From a virus (lineage: Duplodnaviria > Heunggongvirae > Uroviricota > Caudoviricetes): 41,681 bases of DNA. Of the stretch, positions 6,001-15,000 are shown one piece after another. Position numbers: made by a program. Every line of letters starts with the position of its first letter. Position 1 is the stretch's first letter. The DNA lies in IMG/VR virus record IMGVR_UViG_2606217106_000020, one strand, 5' to 3'.

Positions 6001-9000
6001 GTTCTTTCATTTTACGTTTCCAGTGTTGATAACTAATGTGAATTGTTGTTTCAGTGTGGATTTAGAGAGCGTATTTATTGCTCATCACCATGATTCGGCC
6101 TTTACAGGCAAACCATCGCGTCCCAGGAAAACTTTAATCATGCAGTCGGTAATGCATGTTTTTGTCGTGAAGTTACGAATATAGAGCTTTCTCTTTTCAA
6201 TATTGTTTGCTGAAGCGATATATGTGCGGCCTTCATGAAGAACATAATCGCCAGGTGTCACGCACTGACGTGGTATTTCATCAGTCCCGAAGTGATGAGC
6301 AATCATAATTATCTCCATTTTCACAAATGAACTTTGTTGATGCGGTGCCTGGTGCCTCCAGGTGACGTTAACCAGTTAACAATTAACGCCGGGTCAGGGG
6401 ATGATGACTTGCCGTGACATCCTGTCGGTTTAACTGTTCCGCGTGCGCTTAGCCGCATTCACCGCATCACAAAATTCACTTTAAAAAAGGGCGGACATCA
6501 GCCAGCAATAAACTGATGCCGCCAATGACTACACACAGCAATGTTGTTATTCACAACCGGAAGCGCACGGTCGAAGAAAATTTAACGATGCCGTACAGAT
6601 ATACGAGCTTTGCCGTGCGCTTTCGTGTTATGCCCTGGCTTTTCAGGGGAATATCTGTTCAGTAAACTGAGATTGCCGGATTCACACCCGTGTCCGGCGC
6701 ACGAACTCCACCTGACCCGTGGAGAACTCCTTAACTACAACCCCGTAAGGAGGGTGAATTTATGACATAAGAAGAAAAGGCAATGTTTCTGATGCGACTG
6801 GCTGTTGATACCTACAACACACAATTCAGGGAAGAAAAAATACCTCAAAAGGCAGTTCCTGCCGCGGTAGATAGGGGCGGTGCTATTGCCGTATTTTACG
6901 ACGCATTTGAATCCTTTTTTGATGAAAAAACTCGCAGCTGTTAGCGACTTCGGAACATCGAGTAATAAATAACGTCCATTACGGTTCTTAAACAACAATC
7001 AGTGGGCTTGATGTTGTGCTTTTCAAGCTCACTTGCCATCACTTCCATTATTCTTGCACTTACACGAATTATTTGGTGGCTGTAAGCGACGCAACTATCG
7101 CTGATATTGCTGTTTATTTCTATTGCTTCATTTTCACCATTAGCACTAACTTCAGATGTGCTGTTTTCATTTTCCTGTATCAGTGCTGCTTCCGCCATCC
7201 TGATGCGTCCCAGCGTTGAGGAATTTGGGCTAAGTTGATAAACCTGTCGGGCATCTTCCAGAAGCAGGGCGATAATGTGCTTCAGTTCTGTTTCGTTCAT
7301 GGTTAATTCCGTGAGTTGCGATTTATTAATATCAGGAGGTCAGTTCTTTAAGTTTCTGAACCGCTTTATTCATTTCATCCATGCAGTCGATGAACTCGTC
7401 CAGTTTAAGCTGCATTTTTCCGGCGGCCTGAAGAATTTCAAGTTTTAAGGGCGCGAGTTTTTTGTTGAATACATCATCTTCCTGACGTTTTTTCTCCGCA
7501 ATTTCGGCGGCTTTCAGCAATTCTTCTGCCTGTTTTCTGAGTGTTTCTGGTGAAGGTGAAACTACTTTGAGGTTATTCATTTCAGATTCCTGTTGTTGCA
7601 GAATTAATTTATTACATTCTCTGCGCAAGCGTTTCATTGCAGATTCGCACTTCTTACAATAAATGGCTCTCCCGTCACGTTTGCTGGCATCTGAATAAAA
7701 ATCATCGACTGATTTTGTCTGCCCGCATCTGGTGCATAATTTTGACTGAAGGTCCTTAATGATGGTCACGTTTCCTTCCCGTTTGGGATATCCATATTTT
7801 TTGTGGCGGAAAAAGGTTACTCCGTTACCAGAACCTTCTTTTCTGACCTTAAATACAATGATGCTTTCCCGTTTATCGATAAAATCGATGAGCTGGTTTC
7901 TCTCCTTGCCTGACAGTTCGGCAAATGTCTTAACTTTTTTAGTAACTTCCGTAAGTCGAACGCCATCAGGCATTTTTTCAACGAAGTTTTTAATCTCTGC
8001 AAGTGGACGCCATAATTTTTGCGGCAAAACTGAAGGCGTTGTCATTTATCACCTCGCTGTTATTGTTCCTGATTTGCGATAGCCTGCCGCGTAAATGGCT
8101 ACGTTTGGAAGACATACACCAGTTTCTGGTTGCTTATGTCCAAACTCATTCGCGTACACAATGGCCGCTCGCTCCAGATTGCGTCTGTATTCTTTCTGTT
8201 GCCAGATCACGTCCTGTGCCATGAACTTAATTGGCTTAGCGTCTTCTATGCGCTCAGGCGTTTCGTGAGTACCTTTAGCCTGAATCTGCGCTCTGCTTAG
8301 AGTAGGGCGGTGTAATACTTCTGAACTTATTGCTTCTTCGCGGGCCAGCACGCCGTTAGCTAATGCCTTTGCCTTTAAACGCTCACGACGACGAGAACGT
8401 GAATTGCCTTTGAACTGAGTTCTGCGTGTCATATAGACCTCCTGATGAACTTTGGTGGTGTGGTGGGAGGGAGACCCATTTCGACCTGTTTCGGCCTACT
8501 TCAATTCGGCAATAGTCCTGCAGGCCTCGCCGCTTTACGTGCGACATATTCCCGTCCATGAACCCTTCACCACACCCCAAAGTTCACTTTGGTTATTGCG
8601 CTTTGTCAGCGCCGTAGATTCATATTCGAATCGTTGTATATTCACCGCCCTGGTGAGTAGAGCGTCCTGCTGATGGGTGAACTTTATCGGAATGATAAAT
8701 TGATGGCAATAGCAAAATGATAAATTCTTTTGGTTTTCAAATATCGTATTGATTCTTATGGTGTTTTATTTTGTTGTAGGAATTCGACAGGATAAATAAA
8801 GAGATTTGAGGTAGATCTGAATTGCGATGTTTAGTGAGTTGTATCTATTTATTTTTCAACAAATACAATTGGTTATGTGTTTTTAGGTGGAGGGATCGAG
8901 AGGAAAAGAAAACCCGGCGCTGAGGCCGGGCTAGATTTTAAAGTATTTATCTTTTAGAGATGTAGATGTAAAATTTTTCGCCTTTGAAAATTTTTTGTCA

Positions 9001-12000: not shown

Positions 12001-15000
12001 CGAAGAGCTTCCCCTGATAAAGCGAATGCAATCGAAGAAGCTACTCGTAATTTCACGGGTTATAAACCTGTGAAAAAGGAAAACCTTGTGTTCGCATCGC
12101 GTAGAGCATCGGCAGCATAAGTAACACCGCTCTTTTCACAATGGGCATTCGTCCTACGTCGCTGACAAAGCGAGCCCCAAGATATCTGACCAACTAAGGC
12201 CATATGCGTTTCCACGCATACCTTTCAACTAACTATTCACTATTTGGAATCATAAGAAATGTCACAAACAAGTTACAGCAAACTGTCACAGCGCGATATC
12301 GATCGAGCTGAAACGGATTTACTTATCAACCTGTCAGCTCTGACGCAAAGGGGACTGGCGAAGATGATTGGCTGCCATGAATCGAAGGTCAGTCGTACCG
12401 ACTGGCGATACATCGCGGCGATTTTATGCGCGTTCCAGATGGCATCTGATATCAGTCCGATCAGCCGGGCTTTCCAGCATGCCATTAACGTTCATGCAAA
12501 TAAAAAACGTCCGGTTGGGGCCGGACGTTCTGAGCAAATCCTGATGAACATCTGATATTCAGGCAGGGCATGGAGCAATACACGGGAATAATTCTGCCAC
12601 ATCTGGAAGAATTTCGCCAGCAACAACACCAACCGCAGCAGCCTGAAGCCGATTGGGTTAACCCGGAGATACCGGGACCGTCTGTGAAGATGTGCAGTCA
12701 CACCAATGTGCAGTCACACCAACCGCAGCAGCCTGAAGCCGATTGGGTTAACCCGGGAGATACCGGGACCGTCTGCGGTATGGAGTAAATCTTGTATGCG
12801 AGGGGACTATGCGTAATTACGCAACAATTTCACCTCAGTTCTGGTTAGGCGATACAGGGCGAAAACTAAGGAAGTCTGGTCCGGAAAGTATGGTAGTGGC
12901 GTTGTATATGATGACCTCGCCTCATTCCAATATGCTGGGCCTTTATTACCTGCCTGTTTTGTACATTGCTCACGAAACCGGACTTGATCCTGAAGGGGCT
13001 TCTAAGGGGCTTCAAATGGCTTGCGAGGCTGGTTTTTGCAGCTATGACCATGATTCTGAGGTTGTATGGGTGCATGAAATGGCAGCATGGCAGGTTGGTG
13101 AATCGCTGAAACCTGGCGATAACCGTTGTGCTGGGGTAAGAAATGAATATTCCGCGTTGCTGGAAAATCCTTTTTTATCATCCTTTTATGATAGATATAA
13201 GGATGATTTCCATCTGGATGTCAGACGTGAATCATGTCGGAAAATTGAAGCCCCTTCAGAGCCCCTTTCAAGCCAAGAACAAGAACAGGAACAGGAACAG
13301 GAAAGAGATAAAACCCTTCTGGTCCATGGCGAAAAAATCGCCACGGACCCACAGGGGGATTCTTGCCCCGTTCTGACTGAGCGTCCAGGACCAACTGGCA
13401 CGACACCGGAAGCAGATTCCGGGCGTTGTGTGCAGCAGGTGCTGATCGTCGAACCGGAGCAACAGCACCAACCGCAGCAGCCTGATGCCGATTCCGCGAT
13501 GAGCGGGAAGCCGATTGGGTTAACCCGGGAGATGCCGGGACCGTCTGCGGGACGAGTTGATTATCCTGACGTGTTCGAACGGGTCTGGCGTGAATATCCG
13601 CATCGGGCAGGGTCAAACCCGAAGAAATCCGCGTTCAATGCCTGGAGGGCCAGATTACGCGAAGGGGTGTCACCGGATGTCGTGCTGGATGGCGTGAGGC
13701 GTTACGCAAGATACCTGGAGGCTACCGGGAAAGCGGGAACTGAATTTGTTCAGCAGGCATCGACGTTTTTTGGCCCGAACAGGAATTTCGAAAATCCGTG
13801 GTCGCTGCCGAAGGCTGGCGCAGTCAGCCTGCGTTGCGTGAATCACATTTCTGAACCGGACACCGAAATTCCGCCGGGTTTCAGGGGGTAATCAGCCATG
13901 AAAAACATTTCGACAGGAGGGATTCTTGAACGGGTGCGCCGTCTGGCACCACCGCACGTGGCAGCACCGTTCCGGACGACCGACGAATGGCGGGAATGGC
14001 AACTGGCTGAGGGCCGTAAGCGCAGCGAGGAAATTAACCGCCTGAATCATCAGGCGCGGGTTGAAAAAATCCTGAACCGTGCGGGCATCCAGCCGCTTCA
14101 CAGGAAGTGCTCATTCGGGAACTACCGGGTGCAGAACGACGGTCAGCGCCATGCTCTGAGCCAGGCGAAATCCATTGCCGATGAATTGATGACCGGTTAT
14201 ACAAACTTCGTGTTCAGCGGGAATCCGGGAACCGGAAAAAATCATCTGGCGGCGGCTGTGGGTAATCGTCTGCTGAATGCCGGTAAATCCGTGATAGTGG
14301 TCACCGTGGCGGATGTGATGAGCGCGTTACATGCCAGCTATGACGACGGACTGTCAGGGGAAAAATTTTTGCGTGAACTGTGCGAAGTGGACCTCCTGGT
14401 TCTTGACGAAATTGGCATCCAGCGTGAGACGAAAAACGAGCAGGTGGTACTGCACCAGATTGTTGACCGCCGGACGGCATCACTGCGCAGTGTCGGGATG
14501 CTGACAAACCTGAATCATGCCGCAATGAGCAAGCTTCTTGGTGAGAGGATTATGGACCGGATGACCATGAACGGTGGTCGTTGGGTGAATTTTAACTGGG
14601 AGAGCTGGCGGTCAAACGTTGGACGTCAGGGTATGTGAGAATTTTTGACGAGGTAAATTTTCGATGGAAACCGTATTGCATGCACTGAAAGCGATGGGAA
14701 AAGCCAATTCTGTTGAACTGGCGGCGCGGCTTGATATCAGCCGTGAAGAAGTTCTCAACGAACTGTGGGAGCTCAAAAAAAATGGCGTTGTTGATAAAAC
14801 GGGTCACACCTGGTTTCTGGCTGTCGAAGGTGAAGCCGGGGTAACCGAAGGGCAGGCACTGCAACCTGAAGCGCCGGATGTGGTAACCGAAGAGGTCGCT
14901 CCAAAAGTTACCGCAGACATGATGATTGAGTTTATCGATCAGGATGGGGCTAAAACGTGTGAGGAACTGGCGGGGAAGTTCGGTGTCAGCACTCGTAAGG

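Follow-up and report, generated by a model that had tools for sequence, protein, structure and literature searches.

Early control region of a lambdoid Escherichia coli prophage with predicted H-19B-type immunity and an N-nut module of the H-19B/933W type

The closest described counterparts of the locus analyzed here are the early control regions of two Shiga-toxin (Stx) phages: H-19B (AF034975; Neely and Friedman 1998, 2000; Shi and Friedman 2001), which is an Stx1 phage, and 933W (AF125520), an Stx2 phage whose record carries annotated nutL, nutR, tM, pR, pM and oR1-3. For H-19B, boxB binding and terminator suppression by N with NusA on the H-19B nutR were demonstrated in vitro and in vivo (PMC3526286; PMC4499122), and replacement of the arginines of the N motif RSRRRER with alanine abolished N action on this site (PMC3526286). 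In the Salmonella phage P22, the RNA bound by the N peptide in the solved complex 1A4T (PMC11480772) is the nutL boxB; the cytosine of its GACAA loop is looped out in the complex, and the remaining four bases adopt a GNRA-like fold (PMC12550061). We examined the corresponding region in a 41,681-nucleotide stretch of DNA (hereafter the window) from a Caudoviricetes virus, IMG/VR record IMGVR_UViG_2606217106_000020. The sequence of the window matches a prophage in the chromosome of Escherichia coli cM8a, a human isolate from Malawi, at 100% identity; the layout is that of a complete lambdoid prophage, from integrase to tail fibers, with a 933W-like structural module. Judged from its sequence, the region described below is very probably the early control region of a lambdoid prophage, in which H-19B immunity is combined with the N-nut antitermination module of H-19B and 933W. 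Sequences, positions, orientation, folds and identity to reference phages were observed directly; what is said of binding, transcript starts and factor requirements is drawn from published work on H-19B, 933W, P22 and lambda. A sequence-only reading of the window had proposed P22-type boxB hairpins, boxA elements and matching pL and pR promoters, and all of these elements were found where it had placed them, far above chance expectation.

The N gene (8049-8432, minus strand) codes for a 127-aa protein with an arginine-rich motif, RSRRRER, at residues 12-18. This protein scored 52.7 bits against the Pfam family N_peptide (PF25694; cut-off 27.9) and is 95% identical to the N of H-19B, where RSRRRER is unchanged. 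It could also be aligned with P22 gp24 (FKGNSRSRRRERLKAKAL / FAGNAKTRRHERRRKLAI), where both proteins follow the pattern FxGNxxxRRxER and the last 30 residues are 63% identical. Across the arginine-rich motif, GNSRSRRRERLKAKAL pairs with GNAKTRRHERRRKLAI of P22 gp24; 7 of 16 residues are identical, several of the differences are conservative, and leucine stands in place of the isoleucine. When BLAST alone was used to compare N with gp24, this arginine-rich stretch, which is short, was not reported. Unlike the two ends, the middle of N is unrelated to gp24, and the proteins differ in length (127 versus 100 aa). The two phages also differ in repressor, operators and host. Lambda N aligns at TRRRER, with lambda Trp18 opposite an asparagine here. 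A search of the N sequence against PDB gave no meaningful match; the P22 N peptide in 1A4T was not among the results.

The hairpins that this protein would recognize are located in both divergent early transcripts. The nutL boxB (8598-8612, minus strand; GCGCTGACAAAGCGC (GCGCUGACAAAGCGC)) reads GCGCU-GACAA-AGCGC, and the nutR boxB (12159-12173, plus strand; TCGCTGACAAAGCGA) reads UCGCU-GACAA-AGCGA. Folding of 19-nt stretches gave a 5-bp stem and a 5-nt loop in each case (-8.5 kcal/mol for nutL and -6.4 kcal/mol for nutR). Both sites thus have the features of the P22 class, i.e., a 5-bp stem closed by U-A and the loop GACAA, and both hairpins are on the sense strand: one 3' of pL and ahead of N, at about +63 to +77 of the pL transcript and ~165 nt before the gene, and the other between cro and cII. 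Their 11-mer core, GCTGACAAAGC, has exactly two perfect copies in the 41.7 kb, one for each early transcript, against a chance expectation of ~0.8 matches even when one mismatch is permitted. The assignment of a P22-type boxB to both nut sites is borne out by the nutL boxB, which is identical to the P22 nutL boxB at 15 of 15 positions, and by the alignment of the N motif with P22 gp24. The nutR boxB is identical in H-19B and 933W, and the nutL boxB is unchanged in 79 IMG/VR loci encoding this N. The nutL was also found in 410 of 5426 complete E. coli genomes.

The whole nut spans carry the assignment from a class of hairpin to a described system. The 933W record AF125520 annotates a 67-nt nutL and a 46-nt nutR, which correspond by alignment to window positions 8598-8664 and 12128-12173 with 1-3 substitutions; the boxA candidates and the ends of the boxB hairpins are exactly the limits of these spans. 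The boxA-boxB spacers (22 nt in nutR and 43 nt in nutL), with predicted small hairpins, have the H-19B arrangement. In nutL, spacer hairpin 2 (8617-8632, minus strand; GAUUC-GAAUAU-GAAUC) is predicted in both the window and H-19B, and among relatives its stem is constant and its loop is GAAUAU, AAAUAU, AAGCAA or AAACAU. Spacer hairpin 1 (8643-8655, minus strand; CACC-AGGGC-GGUG) is predicted for H-19B; at this place the variant boxA-like bases of the window take part in a different pairing in its minimum-energy fold. The nutR spacer hairpin (12143-12154, plus strand) is GGGC-AUUC-GUCC here and GGAC-AUUC-GUCC in H-19B, for which it is predicted, and among 48 related nutR sites (both boxB types) a single one had a different spacer. 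A spacer stem-loop of H-19B, the 'reducer', is said to bring the flanking elements together. We also considered a helix enclosing the nutR boxB, in which GGGC at 12143-12146 would pair with GCCC at 12174-12177 and the two bases differing from H-19B seemed compensatory. It was rejected because it did not covary: among 24 nutR sites the downstream base is free (GUCCC, GCCCC, GUUCC, GGCCC), whereas GGAC is near-constant.

The P22 nut sites are built differently. The P22 nutL is CGCTCTTTAA-CTTCGATGAT-GCGCTGACAAAGCGC, and the P22 nutR boxB, CCGCCGACAACGCGG, has the same GACAA loop on a stem, CCGCC/CGCGG, that is unlike that of the window. At both P22 sites a consensus boxA, CGCTCTTTA, is 9-10 nt from boxB, in contrast to the hairpin-bearing spacers of 22 and 43 nt described above. 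The likeness to lambda is one of arrangement: divergent pL and pR flank cI, nutL precedes N, nutR lies between cro and cII, and boxB has a 5-bp stem, a U-A closing pair and a loop starting with G-A. The lambda loops, however, are GAAGA and GAAAA, boxA is 8-9 nt from boxB, and operators and repressor are unrelated. The comparison with the P22 and 933W nut sites and N motifs therefore refines the initial assignment: by sequence, the nut system is not that of P22 itself but the published nut type of H-19B and 933W, in which the spacers are long and bear hairpins. With N 95% identical to H-19B N, the elements would indeed define antitermination specificity, as that of the H-19B/933W N.

The immunity type can be assigned from the repressor and its operators. 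The cI gene (11069-11773, minus strand) encodes a 234-aa protein with a Pfam Peptidase_S24 domain, identical to H-19B CI at 234 of 234 positions. With 933W CI it shares only the C-terminal 154 aa (the alignment starts at residue 81), and the H-19B and 933W repressors have been reported to share the oligomerization domain (PMC3202840). The product of cro (11887-12120, plus strand; 77 aa) is also of H-19B type and unrelated to that of 933W. Three sites at OL, namely OL1 (8683-8699; TTTATCGGAATGATAAA, a perfect TTTATC-N5-GATAAA palindrome), OL2 (8708-8724) and OL3 (8740-8756), and three at OR, namely OR3 (11792-11808), OR2 (11816-11832) and OR1 (11841-11857), are identical to the repressor sites annotated in the ST2-8624 record GQ499358; a fourth, OR0 (11859-11875), differs by one base (TTATTC versus TTGTTC). 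With up to two mismatches, TTTATC-N5-GATAAA occurs in the 41.7 kb only at 8683, 11792, 11841 and 11859, i.e., only in OL and OR. Four operator sites at H-19B OR are mentioned in a passage of a review (PMC8065619) citing Shi and Friedman 2001, and 933W was reported to have two OL sites (PMC8065619), versus three annotated for the immunity type of the window. No similarity to 933W immunity (repressor N-terminal domain, cro and operators) was detected across 11522-12111 or ~8665-8880. That these elements define the immunity of the prophage fits the complete identity of CI, and on these comparisons the immunity is H-19B type and not 933W type, though 933W is the closest match for N, nutL and the stk operon.

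Alignment with the two Stx phages makes the mosaic structure of the region visible. Positions 8049-11522, which contain N, its leader, nutL, tM, L0081, stk, the RuvC-like gene, the DUF3024 gene and the C-terminal half of cI, are ~96% identical to 933W overall (in 933W terms, the operon is L0081-stk-L0083-L0084), and within them the OL/pL stretch (~8665-8880) could not be aligned to 933W. Nothing in 933W corresponds to 11522-12111, the stretch made up of the N-terminal half of cI, OR and cro. From nutR to cII, identity to 933W is ~82% overall, and across nutR itself the two are nearly identical, differing at a few bases. The immunity stretches, in turn, are 97-99% identical to H-19B, ST2-8624, BP-4795 and many Stx1a phages. 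The join points are thus exposed: relative to 933W, the immunity cassette (~8665-8880 plus ~11520-12110) is swapped, whereas N, nutL, nutR and the stk operon are kept. Compared with H-19B, cI is identical, cro, OL and OR are nearly identical, and the two boxB elements and the two spacers show only single-base differences. The differences from H-19B include the boxA and boxA-like elements discussed below, the nutR spacer stem (GGGC versus GGAC) and one OR0 base; in addition, the leader from boxB to N follows 933W, as do stk, the RuvC-like gene and the DUF3024 gene between OL and cI, and the N-to-cI interval of H-19B is ~700 bp shorter. Unlike in the Stx1 phage H-19B, no stx gene is annotated in the prophage. 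In the 79 IMG/VR contigs encoding this N, hardly any variation occurs between the transcript start and the end of boxB, and the promoter region upstream of this segment belongs to at least five immunity types.

The predicted promoters are arranged alike on the two sides of this cassette. pL (8681-8709, minus strand) consists of a -35 hexamer TTGCCA (8704-8709), a 17-bp spacer and a -10 hexamer TAAAGT (8681-8686), and was found by a promoter scan with 9 of 12 matches. pR (11831-11859, plus strand) consists of TTGCGG (11831-11836), a 17-bp spacer and TAAAGT (11854-11859). On the sense strand the layouts are TTGCCATCAA[TTTATCATTCCGATAAA]GT for pL and TTGCGGTTGA[TTTATCAAAATGGTAAA]GT for pR. O1 is in the same register in both: 13 of its 17 bases form the end of the spacer, and the other four are the start of the -10 hexamer. 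The half-site ATTTATCA is the left half of O1. The pattern TTGC-N5-ATTTATCA-N6-TAAAGT occurs in the window only at 8681-8709 (minus strand) and 11831-11859 (plus strand), and none would be expected by chance. The matching pL/pR architecture that had been proposed is therefore present in full, with the same hexamers, the same spacer length and the operator in the same register. By homology to the lambda pL leader, ATCAGCAGG, we infer that the pL transcript starts at ~8674.

Several points weigh against the reading given so far. The transcript starts are placed by homology only. In OR, a second record (KU238070) sets oR1-oR3 2-3 nt to the left of the GQ499358 positions, and the 17-mer ATACGCAATATGATAAA at 11808-11824, which equals OL2 (AATAGCAAAATGATAAA) at 13 of 17 positions, fits neither annotation. 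The 17-mer shares one base with the annotated OR3 and nine with the annotated OR2, for which the two annotations differ by 3 nt; given this OL2-like sequence, the OR2 position listed above is tentative. The nutR spacer hairpin is weakened in the window by one G-U pair and is absent from the minimum-energy fold, and the whole nutR stretch folds no better than shuffled sequence (z = -0.28). The pR candidate has 7 of 12 matches to the sigma-70 consensus and was missed by a generic scan, which gave a rightward TTAGCA-17-TATGAT at 11793-11821. Finally, the nutL 'boxA' is probably, on the sequence comparisons that follow, a resemblance within a conserved leader and not a NusB/NusE site.

A boxA would be expected as CGCUCUU(U)A shortly 5' of boxB. 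In nutR, CGCTCTTTT (12128-12136, plus strand) is a good, near-consensus match 22 nt 5' of boxB, and it starts the span that matches the 933W nutR feature. CGCTCTTT occurs once in the window, at nutR; the 8-mer alone is not significant (1.5 expected), and it is meaningful because of its position. In nutL, CGCTCTACT (8656-8664, minus strand), at the upstream end of the span matching the 933W nutL feature, is a weak match. Its distance from boxB, put at ~45 nt in the sequence-only reading, is 43 nt. It occupies +11 to +19 of the inferred pL transcript, and its first three bases (CGC) belong to the block ATCAGCAGGACGC that is common to the lambda and P22 leaders (leader starts: lambda, ATCAGCAGGACGCACTGACCACC; P22, ATCAGCAGGACGCTGGTAGCC; window, ATCAGCAGGACGCTCTACTCACC). 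In lambda and P22 the shared block is not boxA; the actual boxA is ~25 nt further on. We doubt the nutL boxA because of this position in a leader block common to the window, lambda and P22. Between +20 and boxB no better nutL candidate was found.

Both elements vary among relatives. The nutL boxA-like element is CGCTCTACT in the window, CGCACTACT in H-19B and CGCATTACT in 933W; the window form is rare, being present in 3 of the 410 complete E. coli genomes carrying this nutL and in none of the 79 N-encoding IMG/VR contigs, and an exact-match IMG/VR scan was also empty. The nutR boxA of H-19B and 933W is CGCTATTTT, with A at the fifth base where the window has C. In 24 related sites with a GACAA boxB the fifth base is C in 10 and A in 12, and since the C form is common we treat it as an ordinary polymorphism. 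Both elements of the window are nearer to the consensus than those of the prototypes H-19B and 933W.

This closeness to the consensus raises the possibility that both boxA elements are working NusB/NusE loading sites, and that the prophage uses the full lambda-like set of host factors, unlike the H-19B prototype. This would go slightly further than the sequence-only reading, which called the nutR boxA good and the nutL candidate weaker. The nutR element, CGCUCUUU, agrees with lambda CGCUCUUA at 7 of 8 positions and with P22 CGCUCUUUA at 8 of 9, and in nutL the CGCTCT of the window is nearer to the consensus than CGCACT or CGCATT. Furthermore, the fifth-base A of H-19B and 933W is the change found in lambda boxA16 (C38A), which shifts the NusB:NusE Kd from ~90 nM to ~3400 nM, i.e., ~40-fold lower affinity (PMC2800207), and the window has C. 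On the other hand, RNase H footprinting of the H-19B nutR revealed no N-dependent or Rho-dependent protection of boxA (PMC3526286). The nutL element lies inside the leader block that is not boxA in lambda and P22, 43 nt from boxB, and the common nutR C form marks no special lineage. Moreover, boxA, NusB and S10 are reportedly dispensable for H-19B N. We consider it unlikely that both elements load NusB/NusE. A related and somewhat less probable idea, offered here as speculation, is that the fifth-base polymorphism splits the H-19B-type phages into a NusB/NusE-independent A class (including the prototypes H-19B and 933W) and a NusB/NusE-loading C class (including the window). If such classes existed, host-factor dependence of early expression (in Stx phages, of toxin expression) would vary between near-identical prophages.

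A second alternative concerns pR. The promoter could be TTAGCA-17-TATGAT at 11793-11821, which has 9 of 12 consensus matches versus 7 of 12 for TTGCGG-17-TAAAGT, and the likeness of the latter to pL could merely reflect shared operator sequence. However, promoter scan matches in the region were at the shuffle expectation (12 versus 11.8), and TTGCGG-17-TAAAGT shares hexamers, spacer length and O1 register with pL, which the same scan did find. This promoter also puts OR1 over the -10 hexamer and OR0 over the start, and leaves a leader of ~20 nt before the cro ribosome binding site. The competing candidate overlies OR3 and OR2, and AT-rich palindromic operators could equally well have produced it as a side effect, which is how we regard it. 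It is very unlikely to be pR, and we retain TTGCGG-17-TAAAGT in that role.

With regard to the hairpins, the outermost stem pair is changed on both sides between the two sites (G-C in nutL versus U-A in nutR). Over nutL, nutR and relatives, with stem pairs counted by script across eight boxB sequences including 14-nt variants, pair 1 is G-C, U-A or C-G and pair 2 is C-G or G-C. An Rfam scan of 7800-13000 with E up to 1 gave two chance-level matches only and none at the nut sites; because no family was matched there, the scan is uninformative either way. Short GC-rich hairpins are common and the nutR stretch as a whole is not unusually stable, yet the idea that these are chance inverted repeats, intrinsic terminators or RNase III sites instead of N-binding sites can hardly be sustained, as the stems covary, the identical 11-nt core is found at these two places only and in the sense orientation of each early transcript, neither hairpin has a U tract on its 3' side or appeared in the terminator scan, the sequence is that of a boxB with a solved N-peptide complex, and the gene for an N protein with the cognate motif follows 165 nt further on.

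A sister N/nut type, linked to the same cII module, was observed outside the window in at least 120 viral contigs (for example, in the set L167-L246, with a nutR match at 9156-9172 in L167). Its boxB has a 5-bp stem and a GAAA tetraloop, UCGCU-GAAA-AGCGA in nutR and UGGCU-GAAA-AGCCA in nutL. The GAAA loop corresponds to the GACAA of the window minus the cytosine, the base looped out in the P22 complex, and the stems are distinguished by a compensatory change from G-C to C-G. The sister-type N (MSRKTEFKGTAASRRRARRANLQ...) has 90 aa, is ~35% identical to the N of the window and has the same C-terminus. When the 150 nt 5' of cII were compared (L085-L164), four nutR types were found to precede the same cII family: the H-19B type (GACAA), the GAAA variant, the P22 type (CCGCCGACAACGCGG) and a phi21-like type (TCACCTCTAACAGGGTGA). 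This variety before one cII family points to module exchange exactly at the nutR/cII boundary.

Taken with the published systems, an early control region of H-19B immunity and H-19B/933W antitermination may work as follows. In the lysogen, CI would bind the 17-bp TTTATC-N5-GATAAA operators, three at OL and four at OR (OR0-OR3); each O1 site extends into the -10 hexamer of pL or pR, and CI bound there would shut these divergent promoters off. The cI gene and the downstream DUF3024, RuvC-like and stk genes would be read up to the terminator at 8911-8932. Upon cleavage of CI in the SOS response, pL and pR would fire, and N would be translated from the pL transcript. The pR transcript would carry boxA, the small spacer hairpin and boxB between cro and cII. 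The arginine-rich helix of N would bind the GACAA loop of boxB on both nascent transcripts, and N, together with NusA (and NusG) and through its C-terminus, would make RNA polymerase resistant to terminators. The antiterminated polymerase would then read through tR1, located between nutR and cII, and through tL1/leftward and later terminators.

Several neighboring features are also shared with known phages. Between OL and cI (8934-11008, minus strand) is an operon of the lysogen-expressed 933W type, with genes for a DUF3024 protein, a RuvC-like protein and Stk, a Ser/Thr kinase of eukaryote-like type, and with a 54-aa open reading frame (ORF). The intrinsic terminator that ends the cI-stk operon (8911-8932, minus strand; -14.5 kcal/mol, z = -3.2) was detected by the terminator scan and is tM in the 933W annotation. 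On the other side, cII (12259-12555, plus strand; Pfam Phage_CII) is the first gene 3' of nutR. Between the two, at 12203-12220 (plus strand), is a 7-bp hairpin, AUGCGUU-UCCA-CGCAU-like, followed by CAACTAACTATTCAC; P22 has a different hairpin (GCGCAT...ATGCGC) at the same place, followed by the same ACTAACTATT motif. The hairpin of the window is probably part of the tR1/cII leader region. A strong intrinsic terminator (11-bp stem and U tract; -16.8 kcal/mol, z = -5.8) is located antisense to the 3' end of cII (12504-12531, minus strand), which is the position of the oop RNA terminator in lambda and P22.

Further downstream, a repeat of ~70 bp (...CACCAACCGCAGCAGCCTGAAGCCGATTGGGTTAACCCGGGAGATACCGGGACCGTCTG...) is present in three copies (12619-12687, 12709-12778 and 13458-13550), two of them tandem-like within a small ORF (12570-12788) and one within the replication gene (12809-13891). 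These repeats could be a partial duplication of the replication gene or related to the origin. The nin region (16952-18629; L166 23053-24730) has three annotated genes related to toxin-antitoxin systems: a RelE/ParE-family toxin with a helix-turn-helix (HTH) partner, a Doc-family toxin and hokD. In Stx phages, stx lies between the Q antiterminator and the holin; at this place (22973-26083; L166 15599-18709) RefSeq annotates no stx and instead a 636-aa DUF6645 protein. No tRNA genes were found anywhere in the window.

The early control elements of this prophage are those already described for the Shiga-toxin phage H-19B and its relative 933W; in this sense they are ordinary, and apart from a catalogue of variants nothing is added to the 1998-2004 publications on these phages. 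The comparisons nevertheless would allow the prophage to be typed with confidence, as homoimmune with H-19B and of H-19B/933W N specificity, and automatic annotation of the prophage marks none of these cis elements. A mildly useful by-product is the catalogue of natural boxA and boxB variants, including the sister type with a GAAA-tetraloop boxB. Studies of N-boxB recognition and of NusB/NusE dependence could use such variants as mutants already at hand.

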